DNA of 64,000 nucleotides from Alphaproteobacteria bacterium (GCA_033763775.1 JANRJW010000008.1:7256-71255); one strand, 5' to 3'; positions 5,201 through 47,506 are shown, numbered from the stretch's first letter. Translations and numbers: made by a program. Notes: generated by a model not told the origin, from the sequence alone.

Positions 5201-5662
5201 GAGCATATCGCGGCTGCCATCCGGCGAGAGCAGATGCACCACCATGGTGAGATCGGGCGAACTTTTTACGGTGGTGACACCAAACTGGCGCACCTCATCA
5301 GGAAGACGTGGCAATGCCTGCGACACACGGTTTTCCACCAGCTGCTGGGCTTTGTCCGGATCGGTGCCAATTTTGAAGGTGACAGTAAGGCGCATCACAC
5401 CATCGCTGGTGCCCTGCGACGACATGTAGAGCATACCCTCGACGCCGTTAATCTGCTCTTCCAGCGGCGCGGCCACCGTTTCTGAAATCACTTTCGGGTT
5501 CGCGCCCGGATATTGCGCGGAAACTTCCACCGTGGGCGGCACAACATCAGGATATTCCGAGATGGGCATCAGCGGAATGGCGATCAGACCGGCGATAAAA
5601 ATCAGCGCCGAGAGCACTCCGGCAAAAATCGGGCGATCGACGAAAAAGCGGGAGAAGTTCAT
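2243..5662 (-). CDS. RND (HAE1/AcrB-type) efflux permease, 1139 aa, with an extra ~85-aa two-helix insertion
   Basis: N-terminus is MNFSRFFVDRPIFAGVLS. The family motif GIVVDDAIVVVEN is present. The start forms an ATGA overlap with the upstream MFP gene. See the finding on the insertion at aa ~505-589. Confidence 0.93.
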   Translation of the reverse strand: MNFSRFFVDRPIFAGVLSALIFIAGLIAIPLMPISEYPDVVPPTVEVSAQYPGANPKVISETVAAPLEEQINGVEGMLYMSSQGTSDGVMRLTVTFKIGTDPDKAQQLVENRVSQALPRLPDEVRQFGVTTVKSSPDLTMVVHLLSPDGSRDMLYQRNYAVLNVKDALARVRGVGQVAVFGSGDYAMRLWLNPEKMAARGLAATDVVMAVREQNVQVAAGVIGGPPYAKGTEIQLNVSAQGRLQTEEEFGEIVLKTDPQTGGVTYLRDVARIELGASEYGLRSLLDNKPAVAIPIFQAPGSNAIQISDDIRATMAELKKDFPPGLDYSIVYDPTVFVRDSITAVIKTLLEAVALVVLVVIVFLQTWRASIIPLLAVPVSIVGTFAFMYAFGFSINALSLFGLVLAIGIVVDDAIVVVENVERNIEEGLSPLEATYQAMREVSGPIIAIALTLIAVFVPIAFMSGLTGQFYQQFALTIAISTVISAFNSLTLSPALAAMLLKPKGLPKDKLTLLIEKIFGGVFHAWRWFLAAVLLVIADIIIMKILGSLLGFSPVLMFVGIGFTVLIWLSVAIGAVLAIKHMLTPPAAGAPQGFDLFNRYFGRQSERYSLGVQSSLKRKRAFVMGYVVLIGVTGLLFQLTPKGFIPQQDKQYLVSFAMLPDGANLDRTEEVMRKMSDIMMKQPGVQSAVAFPGLSIKGFTNSPSAGITFVSLKPFEERTTPDLSAGAISGALMGQYFMQIKEAFPVLALPPPPVMGLSTTGGAKLQIQDRADLGYEALDAVKNEILGKARQSPVFDPQGGAYSLYGINVPQLEVKVDRVRAKQMGVNITDIFATLQIYLGSAYINDFNKFGRTYRVFAQADSEFRDRASDMLQLKVRSSSGEMVPLGALIKVTESYGPDNATRYNAYRSADINVSPAAGYSTGQVKDEIERIVRETLPKGMTFEWTELTYQEILAGNTALLIFPLCVLLVFMVLAAQYESLVLPLAVILIVPMCLLSAIFGVWIVGRDNNIFTQIGLIVLVGLACKNAILIVEFARELEIMQKLSPFHAAIKSCRLRLRPILMTSFAFIMGVLPLVFSSGAGSEMRQDMGVAVFSGMLGVTFFGLFLTPIFYVGLRMMFGGTLHSASLEHAHHHEGERRE

Positions 5663-6822
5663 GGCTGTGATTCGGGATTGGGGATTGGGGATTCGGGATT
5701 TGGGTTTGTTTGAGGTTGCTCAGTTGCTGTCATGCTAACCAGCTCCGGCACCACCGGCGCGCCGGGGAAAAAGACGCGCTGCGTGCCATTGATGACGATT
5801 TTTTCGCCAGCACTCAAACCATCGGTAATGATGCGCAGGCCTTCGGCCACGCCGCCCAGTGTCACCGCGCGCTGCTCGGTGGTGCCGTCTTCCTTCACCA
5901 CAATCACGAACTTGCGGCTCTGATCCGTGCCGATCGCTTTTTCAGCCACTAATATCGCAGGATGAGGCACTGCATCCGCAATGCGCACGCGGGCAAAAAG
6001 ACCCGGCAGTAGCGAGCCATCCTCATTGTCAAAAACAGTGCGCACACGAATGGTGCCGGATGCGATATTCAGCTGGTTATCAAATGATTGCACGCGGCCA
6101 GTGTAAGTTTTATCGCCGGTGGAAAGCGCCAGCTCCACCGGAATGGACGAGATGGTTTCCTGACTTCCCAGCGCTGGCTGCAAATAGCGCACGAAGGTCT
6201 GCTCATCGATTTCCACATCGGCATACATCGGATGGATGGAGACCACGCTGGTGAGCACAGGCGCATTGCCGCCAGCGTCAACCAGATTACCCACGGTGAG
6301 CTCCGGACGGCTTGCGCGGCCTTTGATTGGCGAGCGCACCTCGGTGTATTCCATATCCAGCTGGGCGCGGGTGAGCGCGGCGCGGGCGATTTCCAGCTCG
6401 TTCCTGCGCTGATCGAATTCGCGTTTGGGGATGGCCTTATCGGCTATCAGCGCACTGGCACGAGCGAACTCAGCTTCGGCGAGCGCGGCGGTTGCCTGCG
6501 CCGCTTTCAGGGTTGCAGCATAAGGGCGCGGGTCAATGGTGAAAAGTGGCTGGCCGGCCTCCACCATCTGCCCTTCGGTAAAATGCAATTTCTGAATCAC
6601 GCCAGAAACGCGCGGGCGAATCTCAGCGCTTTCCACCGCGCTTAAGCGGCCGGTAAACTCGCGCCACTGCCGCACCTCTTTGGCCACCACTTCGGCAACT
6701 TCCACCGGCATCGGCCCGCCCATGCCCGCCTGGCCGCCAGCACCGCGGCCTGAAACCATGGAATACACCCCATAACCGCCTGCAGCGACAAGGATAAGAA
6801 ACGCAAGATAACGACGCGGCAT
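5659..6822 (-). CDS. RND efflux periplasmic adaptor (membrane fusion protein)
   Basis: Single N-terminal TM helix, lipoyl/hairpin/beta-barrel MFP layout, translationally coupled to the RND gene. The C-terminal tail TNPNPESPIPNPESQP is encoded by heptamer repeats. Confidence 0.88.
   Translation of the reverse strand: MPRRYLAFLILVAAGGYGVYSMVSGRGAGGQAGMGGPMPVEVAEVVAKEVRQWREFTGRLSAVESAEIRPRVSGVIQKLHFTEGQMVEAGQPLFTIDPRPYAATLKAAQATAALAEAEFARASALIADKAIPKREFDQRRNELEIARAALTRAQLDMEYTEVRSPIKGRASRPELTVGNLVDAGGNAPVLTSVVSIHPMYADVEIDEQTFVRYLQPALGSQETISSIPVELALSTGDKTYTGRVQSFDNQLNIASGTIRVRTVFDNEDGSLLPGLFARVRIADAVPHPAILVAEKAIGTDQSRKFVIVVKEDGTTEQRAVTLGGVAEGLRIITDGLSAGEKIVINGTQRVFFPGAPVVPELVSMTATEQPQTNPNPESPIPNPESQP
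5669..5703. repeat. Tandem heptanucleotide array (GATTCGG GATTGGG GATTGGG GATTCGG GATTTGG)
   Basis: Five in-phase heptamers read directly from the sequence. They are followed at 5714-5730 by GTTGCT-type units. The array lies inside the 3-prime end of the MFP CDS. Confidence 0.85.
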
Positions 6823-26043: not shown

Positions 26044-26697
26044 TCAGAGCCTTACGAAATTGCTGAGCAGGCGCAGCCCCGTTTCCTGACTTTTTTCCGG
26101 GTGAAACTGCGTGCCCATGATGTTGCCCTTCGCTACCACTGCGGTGATGGTTTGTCCATAGTTGCAGCTGGCAATCACATCCGGCGAACCTGCCGCATGG
26201 TAGCTATGCACAAAATAGGCGTGCGCGCCCGTTTGGATGCCAGCAAGCAGCGGGTGTGCGCTCACGGTGAGTTCATTCCAGCCCATGTGGGGGATCTTGA
26301 GGGATTGGGCATTAGGGATTTGGGATTGGTTCGCTAGTCCCTGATGCCTGATGCCTAATGCCTTTACTTCCCCCTTCAGCCAGCCCAGTCCGTCATGCAT
26401 GCCGTGCTCAAAGCCACGTTCAAACAAAAGCTGCATGCCGACACAAATGCCCAGAAAGGGCTTTTGTTTCACCTGCACTTCTTCATGCAATGCTGCCAGC
26501 ATGCCGGGGATGGCGGCAAGACCGCGCATCGAGTCGCCATACGTGCCGACACCGGGCAGCACGATATGGCTCGCGCGTTTTAAATCCTCTGGGCTTTGGG
26601 TGATATGGACATGGACGCCATCGGGCGCAACACGCTCCAGCGCTTTGGCGGCCGAGCGCAGATTGCCAGAGCCGTAATCAATCACCGCGATACTCAT
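26044..26697 (-). CDS. hisH: Imidazole glycerol phosphate synthase, glutamine amidotransferase subunit, carrying a ~24-codon repeat insertion
   Basis: IAVIDYGSGNLRS, GICVGMQLL (catalytic Cys), PHMGWN and QFHPEKS motifs. See the repeat at 26291-26362. Confidence 0.93.
   Translation of the reverse strand: MSIAVIDYGSGNLRSAAKALERVAPDGVHVHITQSPEDLKRASHIVLPGVGTYGDSMRGLAAIPGMLAALHEEVQVKQKPFLGICVGMQLLFERGFEHGMHDGLGWLKGEVKALGIRHQGLANQSQIPNAQSLKIPHMGWNELTVSAHPLLAGIQTGAHAYFVHSYHAAGSPDVIASCNYGQTITAVVAKGNIMGTQFHPEKSQETGLRLLSNFVRL
26291..26362. repeat. Inverted heptamer-array element inside hisH (72 bp)
   Basis: The left arm is GGGATTG GGCATTA GGGATTT GGGATTG and the right arm is CCTGATG CCTGATG CCTAATG CC. 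GGCATTAGG (26308-26316) pairs with CCTAATGCC (26354-26362). Confidence 0.8.
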
Positions 26698-38031: not shown

Positions 38032-38108
38032 AACCCTCACCCACGCGCTTTGCGCGTTTCCCTCTCCCTGAAAGGGAGAGGGTCAGGGTGAGGGTCGCTT
38101 TGCGACCC
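38032..38108. repeat. CCCTCACCC/CCCTCTCCC-family element
   Basis: CCCTCACCC...CCCTCTCCCTGAAAGGGAGAGGGTCAGGGTGAGGGTCGCTTTGCGACCC. Its reverse complement closely matches 39297-39345. Confidence 0.85.
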
Positions 38109-39267: not shown

Positions 39268-39396
39268 CATTTTCGATTTAATCATGCACAGAGTTTGGGT
39301 CGCTAAACGACCCTCACCCTAACCCTCTCCCTAGTAGGGAGAGGGACACAGCGGCTACAGTGCTGCGGTAGAGGGTGCATGATTAAATCGAAAATG
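39268..39396. mobile_element. MITE-like 129-bp element with perfect 22-bp terminal inverted repeats enclosing a CCCTCTCCC-family repeat
   Basis: CATTTTCGATTTAATCATGCAC (39268-39289) is the exact reverse complement of 39375-39396. The interior carries GGGTCGCTAAACGACCCTCACCCTAACCCTCTCCCTAGTAGGGAGAGGG. Confidence 0.6.
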
Positions 39397-46156: not shown

Positions 46157-46302
46157 GTCATCCTGAGGATTTTGTCAGCAGACAAAATCCGTGAGGATCC
46201 ATTTTAAAATGTCAGCAGACATTTTAAACGCAAAAAGTCTGCTGACTTTTTGCTATGCTGGATCCCGGAAAATTTTGCTGCTGCAAAATTTTCCGGGATG
46301 AC
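46157..46302. repeat. Long-form GTCATCC...GGGATGAC multi-hairpin element (4 hairpins)
   Basis: GTCATCCTGAGGATTTTGTCagcaGACAAAATCCGTGAGGATCC, TTAAAATGTCagcaGACATTTTAA, GCAAAAAGTCtgctGACTTTTTGC, GGATCCCGGAAAATTTTGCtgctGCAAAATTTTCCGGGATGAC. Confidence 0.9.
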
Positions 46303-46305
46303 GGC

Positions 46306-46542
46306 TCACACTAACAAATTCAAAATCGTACCGCGATCCCACGTCGAACCCTGACGCAGCGCCGCCACAGCGCTACGGATCAGTGTCGCCAGCGACTCTT
46401 CGGCGGGGATGATGTTGAGGCTCGCACGCTTTGGAACTGGAACCGGCGCTTCACGCTCGCTTTGCTGCGATCGGCGCTGGGTGGATGGCTTCACGCCTCC
46501 AGAACTGGCGCCAATGCGGCTTGGATTGATGTTGATAGTCAT
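46306..46542 (-). CDS. Hypothetical small protein (78 aa)
   Basis: ORF with plausible composition but no clear Shine-Dalgarno and no motif. It is flanked by repeat elements on both sides. Confidence 0.4.
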   Translation of the reverse strand: MTININPSRIGASSGGVKPSTQRRSQQSEREAPVPVPKRASLNIIPAEESLATLIRSAVAALRQGSTWDRGTILNLLV

Positions 46543-46549
46543 AAGCTTG

Positions 46550-46619
46550 GTTGCTAGTTGCTAGTTGCTAGTTGTTAGTGGTCAACTATAAACCAGCAAC
46601 CAGCAACTCTCAACCAGCA
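46550..46619. repeat. Ten in-phase heptamers forming an inverted array (GTTGCTA x3, GTTGTTA, GTGGTCA, ACTATAA, ACCAGCA x2, ACTCTCA, ACCAGCA)
   Basis: Read directly. The left arm is nearly the reverse complement of the right arm, with A/G differences that become G-U wobbles only on the minus-strand transcript. Confidence 0.85.
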
Positions 46620-46627
46620 ACTTATTT

Positions 46628-47506
46628 ATGTTTCTCGTCGCCGCTTTTTATCATTTTTTTGATTTTCCGGATTTTCGTGCCCATCAGCAGCCGCTGCTTT
46701 CACTGCTGAAATCGCAGGGCATCAAAGGCTCGATATTAATTGCGGATGAAGGCTTCAACGGCACGATCTCCGGCACCCAGCCGGCCGTGCACGCGGTGCT
46801 CGAGCGCCTCAAACACATCGGCGGTGCGTTTGAGCATAAGGAAAGTTTTTTTGAGAAGCAGCCTTTTGGCAAAGCGAAAGTAAGGCTTAAAAAGGAGCTG
46901 ATTTCGCTTGGTGAAGCCGCTTTCGTTCGTCATCCCCGCTTCGTGCGGGGATCTAAGGCCGCAGAGCTTGATGGCTCAGGATCCCCGCTCAAGGCGGGGG
47001 TGACAGTGGGTGATTATGTTGAACCGAAAGACTGGAACGCGCTGATTAGCGACCCCGATACCATCGTGCTTGATACACGCAATAGTTACGAGACGTATCT
47101 TGGAACATTCGCGCGCGCGATAGACCCAAACACCAGAAACTTCAAAGAGCTACCGGCATTTGTTCGCGAAACACTGCAGGACAAGAAAGATAAAAAAATT
47201 GCCACCTTCTGCACCGGCGGCATTCGCTGCGAAAAATTCACCGCGTGGATGAAAGCCGAAGGTTTTGAAAACGTGTATCACTTAAAAGGCGGCATCCTGA
47301 AATATCTGGAAGAAATTCCAAGAGAAGAAAGTTTGTGGAACGGCGAGTGCTACGTCTTTGATGAGCGCGTGGCGGTCGGCCATGGGCTTGCGCCATCGCA
47401 GACCGCGAGCTCCTGCACCGCCTGCGGCCATACGCTCAAAGAACAAGATCATCGTTCTCCCTTATATAAGGAGAATGAATCATGTCCACATTGCATTGCG
47501 CGCTGA
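46628..47506 (+). CDS. trhO: Rhodanese-domain protein of the YceA/TrhO (UPF0176) family, carrying a ~25-codon repeat insertion
   Basis: AAFYHFFDF, ADEGFNGTISG, DTRNSYE, the rhodanese loop FCTGGIRCEK and C-terminal CxxC motifs. Confidence 0.8.
   Translation: MFLVAAFYHFFDFPDFRAHQQPLLSLLKSQGIKGSILIADEGFNGTISGTQPAVHAVLERLKHIGGAFEHKESFFEKQPFGKAKVRLKKELISLGEAAFVRHPRFVRGSKAAELDGSGSPLKAGVTVGDYVEPKDWNALISDPDTIVLDTRNSYETYLGTFARAIDPNTRNFKELPAFVRETLQDKKDKKIATFCTGGIRCEKFTAWMKAEGFENVYHLKGGILKYLEEIPREESLWNGECYVFDERVAVGHGLAPSQTASSCTACGHTLKEQDHRSPLYKENESCPHCIAR
46929..47004. repeat. GTCATCCCCGC...GCGGGGGTGAC element inside trhO
   Basis: GTCATCCCCGCTTCGTGCGGGGATC ... GGATCCCCGCTCAAGGCGGGGGTGAC has the same two-mini-hairpin layout as 38863-38975. 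It translates as RHPRFVRGSKAAELDGSGSPLKAGV. Confidence 0.82.

Follow-up and report, generated by a model that had tools for sequence, protein, structure and literature searches.

The spacer between two divergent genes in an alphaproteobacterial genome (GCA_033763775.1) is filled by a block of seven-nucleotide repeats set in two inverted arms, at positions 46550-46619 of a 64,000-nt stretch of contig C8 that was analyzed as a whole and is called the window here. The question raised by this locus is whether such a block is a regulatory device of the genes that it separates, a mobile element, or one copy of something that the genome makes repeatedly. We favor the last answer: the block belongs to a set of convergent heptamer-array pairs spread over the genome, and these are, with a probability of around 0.45, made in place by replication and tolerated only at permissive sites. 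The genome, labelled G000 in the comparisons below, has 1.87 Mb in 14 contigs, with 54.5% GC.

The block is composed of three GTTGCTA units and one GTTGTTA, a unique stretch of 14 nt, GTGGTCAACTATAA, and then two ACCAGCA units, ACTCTCA and a final ACCAGCA. Its left (5') arm, with the G/T-rich version of the unit, occupies 46550-46577, and was reported by Tandem Repeats Finder (TRF) as 46550-46579, with period 7, 4.3 copies, 95% matches and a score of 53. The right (3') arm carries the C/A-rich complement of the unit and extends from 46592 to 46621, including an AC after the last unit (46591-46621 by TRF, with period 7, 4.4 copies, 75% matches and a score of 41). An earlier note on this DNA had described ten in-phase heptamers. 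The period-7 block and its sequence are as described there, but only eight units actually repeat, the middle two being the unique AT-rich loop at 46578-46591, and the phase across an inverted repeat carries no intrinsic meaning, a chance match of phase being expected 1 time in 7. The same note presented the arms as near reverse complements, which both the sequence and its folding bear out. The divergent spacer as a whole measures 85 nt (46543-46627), and a long hairpin can be folded from either of its strands. Read on the minus strand, the left arm is TAACAAC followed by three TAGCAAC units, and 7 nt separate its end from the ATG of the first flanking gene, an open reading frame (ORF) of 78 aa; the right arm stops 6 nt short of the ATG of the second, trhO. 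In the sense of either gene, the arm that stands 6-7 nt from its start codon is the C/A-rich one.

Arrays of this type are abundant in the genome. A genome-wide TRF search with scores of at least 40, of the sort proposed in the earlier note, detected 81 arrays of period 7, so that many further arrays do exist, versus 3 of period 6, 5 of period 8 and 11 of period 10, and period-7 arrays numbered 0, 0 and 0 in three dinucleotide-preserving shuffles of the genome. The merged loci are around 140. Their units fall into at least nine families (GGATGAC, GTGGACG, AGGCATT/GGGGATT, GGGCTTT/AGGCTTC, AGGATTC, GTGCTTA, GTTGCTR, AGTGGCG and GCTAGTG), with a weak core in common. Aligned in their optimal register, 49 distinct units share 4.53 bits, compared to 3.96 ± 0.11 for letter-shuffled units, and chimeric arrays are common; this shared core information and the frequency of chimeras support that the families form a related network.

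The anatomy of the arrays is highly regular. Thirty of them form a pair with an inverted partner, clearly exceeding a composition-matched null, and in all 30 pairs the G-rich (G/T-rich) arm is 5' and the C-rich (C/A-rich) arm 3'. Because reverse complementing leaves this order intact, it reflects a genuine polarity of the unit about the dyad. The rule extends to neighboring arrays separated by 200 nt or less, which are arranged as G then C in 33 cases, C then C in two and never as C then G. Arm length is sharply peaked, with 57 of 116 arrays having 4.0-4.5 copies and a median of 30 nt, and the 94 of the 116 arrays whose units lack a run of three G (G3) have the same four-unit mode. A G-quadruplex (G4) motif (G3+N1-7 x4) fits only 11 of the 116, and the GTTGCTA/ACCAGCA units of our locus have no G-run at all. 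Loops range from 5 to around 380 nt; those of at least 10 nt (23 of the 30 pairs) are each single-copy in the genome, no two being alike. Long-loop pairs enclose conserved host sequence, arms separated by 100-380 nt around conserved coding sequence being possible, and arm complementarity is highest precisely in these pairs (0.87-0.96). For example, in carA and murD the arms lie in two variable loops that flank a conserved segment, and on contig C7 they bracket a stop-to-start junction; these three long pairs hold up. A fourth candidate, with a 293-nt loop in polA, was rejected, since its arms belong to two separate short-loop elements.

The position of the arrays relative to genes was studied with a crude hexamer model that made 1865 gene calls covering 91.5% of the genome, so the counts by class are approximate. 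The 115 arrays considered divide into 64 within ORFs, 17 across a gene end and 34 in intergenic DNA; as intergenic DNA represents about 9% of the genome yet holds 30-44% of the arrays, they are enriched there. Directly beside start codons the sense strand of an array is C-rich in 19 of 20 cases, and beside stop codons it is G-rich in 12 of 15, an orientation bias that follows from the polarity of the pairs. The proximity of the arms to the two start codons at 46550-46619 is not exceptional, because the Shine-Dalgarno (SD) signal of this genome is weak: an SD-like 4-mer precedes around 35% of the crude gene starts versus 13% in a control window, and many starts, including those of trhO and the 78-aa ORF, have no SD. 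A role in 5' leaders was rejected as the primary explanation for the arrays, given that over half of them are deep inside ORFs.

Several of these intragenic copies were checked by hand or by alignment and are in frame, namely those in hisH, carA, murD, polA, priA and the tail of a membrane-fusion protein (MFP) gene. Two of them are in the window, had been pointed out in the earlier note and are real both by TRF and by sequence. In hisH (26044-26697, minus strand) a two-armed element at 26291-26363, with an AGGGATT-type arm at 26300-26327 and a CCTGATG-type arm at 26340-26363, makes a loop 11 aa longer just before LKIPHMGWN. In the MFP gene (5659-6822, minus strand) a one-armed array of 5.7 GATTSGG units at 5669-5708, adjoined by two GTTGCT(N) units at 5714-5730, encodes the Pro/Asn/Ser-rich C-terminal tail of an HlyD-type adaptor, and ends 6 nt from the ATGA overlap of its stop with the start of a resistance-nodulation-division (RND) pump gene. 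The priA gene (C14:118900-121023) contains six in-frame arrays, as three paired elements plus singles, and polA (C12:229260-232262) contains an array at the N terminus and, in its 3'-5' exonuclease region, two short-loop elements, all of them in frame. Arms that are C-rich in sense are translated into peptides rich in Pro, Ser, Gln and Asn. The deviation from the unit consensus coincides, in 10 in-gene arrays, exactly with a would-be stop codon, as where GGATGAC has become GGATGGC in a C8 gene of 352 aa; the effect is significant, but the test is partly circular because in-gene arrays were defined by their open frame.

The earlier note considered these arrays a distinct element class. They are indeed real and recurrent, both between and inside genes, but the kind is already described in Xanthomonas and Nostoc (PMC4692102), although no alphaproteobacterial description was found in the literature searched. 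The closest known kind is the convergent heptamer pairs of Rehm et al. (2015, PLoS One 10:e0144275, PMC4692102), which have the same architecture. In Xanthomonas, around 185 GGGAATC arrays are dispersed per genome, with about 70-75 convergent pairs, in which the G-rich unit is first on the plus and then on the minus strand; they lie either within 50 bp of an ORF, upstream and on its non-coding strand, or on the coding strand where a stop codon is, their position is conserved between related species while their length differs, and 7-11% are inside ORFs; GGGGA(C/T)T arrays with similar properties are present in Nostoc PCC 7120, the preference for four units was ascribed to G4 formation, and most of the repeats are transcribed (PMC4692102). 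Our arrays share with that class the tandem 7-nt units with a mode of four (4.3 and 4.4 copies at 46550-46619), the convergent orientation (seen in every pair, our locus included, and in 33 of the 35 close neighbors), a G-rich strand that is non-coding at starts and coding at stops, and even the GGGGATT unit, which is present in the MFP tail and hisH. They differ in having at least nine unit families in one genome, in the 56% of arrays within ORFs, in the frequent swapping of the unit family between close congeners, and in their host, an alphaproteobacterium with a genome of 1.87 Mb. The G4 explanation, built on GGGNATC-type units whose four G3 tracts can form a quadruplex, cannot apply to most arrays here, since 94 of 116, the copy at 46550-46619 included, lack a G3 run.

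Other heptamers are less similar. Contiguous heptamers of several unit types at Nostoc start codons were given speculative regulatory roles (10.1101/2022.06.06.494920), and slippage was proposed by Mrazek and co-workers for the over-representation of heptamers, at least as their work is summarized in PMC4679880. The TAACTGA repeats found in marine Beggiatoaceae, in cyanobacteria and in a number of Bacteroidetes occur as 2-6 copies directly upstream of starts; a single unit is involved, in 169 direct sets versus 1 indirect, mostly intergenic, with a patchy distribution and no evident mechanism of transfer (MacGregor 2015, PMC4679880). They resemble our arrays in being short, in lying at starts and in their patchy phylogeny, but are direct rather than inverted.

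The earlier note also compared the arrays with the short tandemly repeated repetitive (STRR) heptamers of heterocystous cyanobacteria, reportedly described by Mazel et al. in 1990 with several families per genome. The resemblance is apt, as STRR1, CCCCA(A/G)T, is the complement of the GGGGATT/GATTGGG units found here. The other STRR units are TT(G/T)GTCA and CAACAGT, and the repeats are described as mainly intergenic; they are not known to show inverted pairing, to follow a polarity rule or to lie in frame within essential genes. In contrast, the unit at 46550-46619 is GTTGCTR, the complement of STRR1 is found only at 5669-5708 and 26300-26327, and the phylum is a different one. Rickettsia palindromic elements (RPE), said to have been reported by Ogata et al. 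in 2000 as sequences of 100-150 bp with a full-length consensus per family, are alphaproteobacterial and lie in frame inside conserved protein genes as extra surface loops. Our in-gene copies resemble them in this respect, the 46550-46619 copy being intergenic, but only the 7-nt unit is shared among our elements, the center is unique or host sequence, and hundreds of bases can separate one arm from the other. The comparison with repetitive extragenic palindromic (REP) sequences and bacterial interspersed mosaic elements (BIMEs) is similarly partial: all are short, hairpin-forming intergenic repeats, and GC-rich REP-like palindromes fill the same slots in congeners, but the arms here are tandem arrays and not a fixed palindrome.

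The elements were also compared across related genomes. The closest records are metagenome-assembled genomes (MAGs) labelled Rickettsiales or Alphaproteobacteria, and the closest relative, MAG RE-15aug16-6 (G002), has flanks 94-100% identical to those of G000. At our locus it has no array: the 78-aa ORF and trhO are 1.3 kb apart, separated by an insert (405-1591 of locus L001) with genes for the toxin BrnT (PF04365, E 4e-22) and the antitoxin BrnA (PF14384, E 7e-25), as well as an ORF of 151 aa that has no assignment. A second congener, G003, has a degenerate TTRGTRM array adjoining the start of the 78-aa ORF. When the slots of 26 G000 elements were compared with G002, 24 being informative, 7 held the same element without gain or loss of a single unit (one of them with a rearranged right arm), 13 held a different palindrome, either of another heptamer family or a GC-rich REP-like element, 2 differed in length, 2 carried a large insertion and 0 were empty, the other 2 being uninformative. 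In G003, three or four of the compared slots are empty. The loop of hisH illustrates the pattern, since four species have four different inserts there, AGGCATY/CCNAATS in G000, four CAGCAAC units in G003, a GTGACGA/CACTCGC pair in G004 and a GC-rich palindrome in G002, and more distant relatives have none. Likewise, the arms in carA, murD and priA are at the same positions in all three congeners, with different unit families. The absence of unit changes in the shared elements together with the swapping of whole elements supports that change is saltatory, all or none, while the slot persists.

Beyond these congeners the distribution is patchy. Arrays were present in sampled stretches of G003, G004 and L010 and, densely, in those of G019, from another family; none was found in the sampled stretches of G001, G007, G009, G011, G013-G015, G018 and G020, and pattern scans of metagenomes, aimed at comparing copy number between strains, gave no matches. 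Three consecutive GTTGCTR units were detected in 28 of 301 genomes of the order, belonging to 22 of 161 genera and at least 8 families, with up to 37 matches per genome, while the reversed control pattern was present in 3 of the 301 genomes. Close GTTGCTR pairs in these other genomes are plus then minus in 8 of 8 cases. The numbers of matches in G086 (37) and G284 (27), of the same order, exceed the 10 of G000, so that these two genomes would suit work on this unit family better. In the MAG samp_2119_metabat2_316, a pair at 2571-2661 of locus L010, (CAGTTAC)x4.4 ... (AACTGGT)x4.6, is located around 340 nt upstream of trhO; by G-minus-C count its polarity is the opposite one, C-rich first, the sole exception seen, and it may fit the rule by its similarity to AGTTGCT.

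As to how the elements arise, enzymes that could mobilize them were looked for. The Y1 transposase domain PF01797, that of the REP-associated tyrosine transposases (RAYT), is absent from G000, G002, G003, G004 and G019, with control genomes giving matches, and the reverse transcriptase domain RVT_1 (PF00078) has no match in G000, G002 or G019. Consequently, RAYT or IS200 as a mobilizer, on the one hand, and addition by a reverse transcriptase or in a telomerase-like way, on the other, were both rejected. No target-site duplication was found either at the junctions of filled versus empty sites (segments 0, 2 and 25), which also separates the arrays from MITEs (miniature inverted-repeat transposable elements). 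The lack of these enzymes, of a shared core and of target duplication, along with arms that flank host sequence, argues against a copy-paste unit of the MITE, REP or RPE type. We propose that the arms would not be moved as a transposon is, and would be made and remade in situ by the replication machinery. Slippage on a 7-nt register could build and homogenize an array, and intramolecular template switching, in the form of snap-back copying, may then write an inverted copy a short distance downstream. Survival would be possible only at harmless sites, such as intergenic spacers and flexible protein loops, where in-frame stops would be mutated away.

For the copy at 46550-46619, this would imply a tolerated, perhaps co-opted, spacer in which an RNA hairpin is unnecessary. 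Its AT-rich loop offers -10-like hexamers both ways, TATAAA on the plus strand and TATAGT on the minus strand, so that the element itself may provide the promoter boxes, with the -35 in the arm distal to each gene. Toward the 78-aa ORF, the sigma-70-like site TTGAGA-17-TATAGT (46585-46613, minus strand), whose -35 falls in the right arm and whose -10 falls in the loop, matches 10 of 12 consensus positions, a purely consensus match with 0.4 expected per shuffle. Toward trhO, a weaker site, TTGCTA-16-TATAAA (46565-46592, plus strand), read by eye and below the rule of the tool, uses a left-arm heptamer as the -35 and has its -10 in the loop. As the predicted minus promoter would start the transcript inside the loop, the leader would hold one arm and no hairpin; if both sites are used, each 5' leader would most likely consist of the proximal C/A-rich arm alone.

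Several points weigh against such an origin by replication. Slippage and template switching are inferred from the anatomy and from the missing mobilizing enzyme, for which two families were tested. Simple template switching predicts both polarities, so the strict G-first rule demands an additional, unproven asymmetry. The replacement of elements in 13 of the 24 informative G002 slots, with none empty, looks like one-step replacement or like selection for a hairpin, and neither follows from a neutral model in situ. The recurrence of GTTGCTR in 22 genera and at least 8 families could mean horizontal spread of the element or of an enzyme, and the promoter-like sites at 46550-46619 are consensus matches only. 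The model explains neither the G-first polarity nor the one-step replacement without empty intermediates, which leaves an enzyme-driven element and a selected structural role some probability.

The first of these, in which the pairs are non-autonomous mobile palindromes, similar to MITEs, REPs or RPEs, and an unrecognized enzyme copies them to new sites or into existing palindromes, is in our view unlikely. It would turn the replacement of slots in congeners into hairpin-targeted insertion, and explain why unrelated GC-rich palindromes take the place of elements at the same slots with no empty intermediates. Fixed arm polarity would be that of terminal inverted repeats, and both the patchiness among the sampled genomes and the scatter of GTTGCTR over 28 of the 301 are as expected from mobility. 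However, there is no conserved core, the loops being unique or host sequence, the filled and empty sites that were compared show no duplication, neither Y1 transposase nor reverse transcriptase is found in the array-rich genomes, and the arms can be 100-380 nt from each other, around conserved coding sequence. GC-rich palindromes of the type that occupy heptamer-element slots in congeners (ATCCCCGCGAAAGCGGGGAT, GTCATTGCGAG...CTCGCAATGAC and CCCTCCCCCCTTGAGGGGGAGGG) are related to a non-heptamer palindrome of the window, GGATCCCGGAAAATTTTGC TGC TGCAAAATTTTCCGGGATGAC at 46262-46303, directly past the stop of the 78-aa ORF.

A bolder variant of the replicative origin may be considered tentatively, and we regard it as unlikely: a transposase-free process of hairpin writing could operate in this alphaproteobacterial order, in which heptamer arms of fixed polarity would be written around short stretches of host DNA and overwritten in single steps, giving congeners whose flanks are 95-100% identical different cassettes in one slot. 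The G/T-rich strand would run 5' to 3' toward the center, loops of essential enzymes would be included among the targets, and slots would persist, as those compared between G000 and G002 were never seen empty.

Alternatively, the hairpin itself might be what is selected, any stable stem serving and only position and architecture being conserved, while the sequence is free. The candidate roles would be protection or termination of mRNA 3' ends, insulation, processing by RNase III, or binding of a heptamer-reading protein, for example a cold-shock protein. This possibility, which we rate as rather improbable, would account for slots that stay occupied across three congeners in spite of sequence change, even by other types of palindrome, and for the top arm complementarity of the long-loop pairs. 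The rules of position at starts and stops are the same as in Xanthomonas and Nostoc, most of whose repeats are transcribed, and deletion of a heptamer changed the behavior of the recO promoter in assays in Nostoc and E. coli (10.1101/2022.06.06.494920). Yet some G003 slots are empty, many copies are inside essential coding regions, and the closest relative has the BrnT/BrnA module and not an array at 46550-46619. This last copy lies between two gene starts, where a terminator or a 3' stabilizer makes no sense; it differs from an intrinsic terminator also in having no T-run, and no terminator-like site was predicted in 46250-46750. Nor is there a strand preference in folding: among 24 short-loop elements the stronger-folding strand is unrelated to gene sense, the in-gene ones folding better in sense in 3 cases and in antisense in 7, as in hisH, whose antisense strand folds at -43.4 versus -19.4 kcal/mol for the mRNA. 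Selection at the RNA level on the sense strand was rejected on these counts. A search of Rfam 15 produced no match at the gathering score, and its sub-threshold matches were to generic hairpins (miRNA models), with E of 0.1-0.3.

The earlier note itself had explained the locus by its strand asymmetry, A-C mismatches of the plus strand becoming G-U wobbles in the minus-strand transcript, so that a long hairpin would be favored only in the leader of the minus-strand gene; on this reading it would regulate the 78-aa ORF. The difference is real, and the minus strand, with an uninterrupted stem of 18 bp, folds 6.5 kcal/mol better than the plus strand, the stem of which has three single-base interruptions; it is also small, because both strands form the long hairpin far better than shuffles do (plus, -37.2 kcal/mol, z -6.3; minus, -43.7 kcal/mol, z -8.3; as DNA, -20.4 and -23.6 kcal/mol, respectively), and the idea of a hairpin favored solely in the minus-strand leader is not supported. 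The sister element C12:61475-61582 has the same asymmetry (-36.1 versus -50.1 kcal/mol), but in the related C14:112393 it is reversed, and the TAG/CAG arm variants on which it depends are alternatives seen throughout the family. If we add that the stronger strand is not generally linked to gene sense, that the promoter-like site would leave the distal arm out of the leader and that G002 keeps the same ORF without such an element, regulation of the 78-aa ORF in this way appears very unlikely. A mutational bias of the replication strand was also rejected as the source of the G-U/A-C asymmetry, since in short-loop elements the energy difference correlates neither with GC skew (rho 0.12, p 0.56) nor with gene-strand bias. 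Finally, contingency loci, in which slippage by one unit would shift frame or spacing to switch genes on and off, are hardly credible: the unit length of 7 nt is not divisible by 3 and arrays do lie at starts, at stops and inside ORFs, but the arms have only around four units, the hosts are housekeeping genes (hisH, carA, murD, polA, priA) and, unlike in phase-variable simple sequence repeats, no single-unit gain or loss separates G000 from G002 in their 7 shared elements.

Regarding the neighbors of the block, the 78-aa ORF (46306-46542, minus strand) has no Pfam match, but two congeners retain it at equal length and with an unchanged stop, so it is a real gene. The product of trhO (46628-47506, plus strand) has the domains UPF0176_N, Rhodanese and Rhodanese_C. 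Ahead of the palindrome at 46262-46303, around 46212-46250, a GTCAGCAGAC...GTCTGCTGAC stem with a T-run is terminator-like. Elsewhere in the window, two arrays of period 6/12, AGGGAGAGGGTC (38073-38096) and ACCCTCACCCTA (39310-39333), are mutually inverted and around 1.2 kb apart, and possibly represent another repeat family.

In many bacteria no other simple repeats are as over-represented as heptamers, and G4 formation is the sole role proposed for the class of Xanthomonas and Nostoc. The convergent architecture of four units described here, with equal position rules at starts and stops but with units that mostly cannot form G4, argues for an origin in the way the repeats are made and not in a G4 function. 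The copy at 46550-46619 is an ordinary member of this class; the noteworthy traits are those of the lineage, namely many non-G4 families, a strict polarity, in-frame copies in essential genes and replacement that conserves the slot. With its strict polarity, unique or host-derived centers and slot-for-slot replacement, this lineage is a good natural system for studying mechanism, and it would show how essential enzymes tolerate disordered insertions. Hairpin writing, if true, would be a replication-linked mutational mechanism, by template switching or by addition at 3' ends, that creates translated hairpins de novo, and the heptamer repeats of Xanthomonas and cyanobacteria could have the same explanation.

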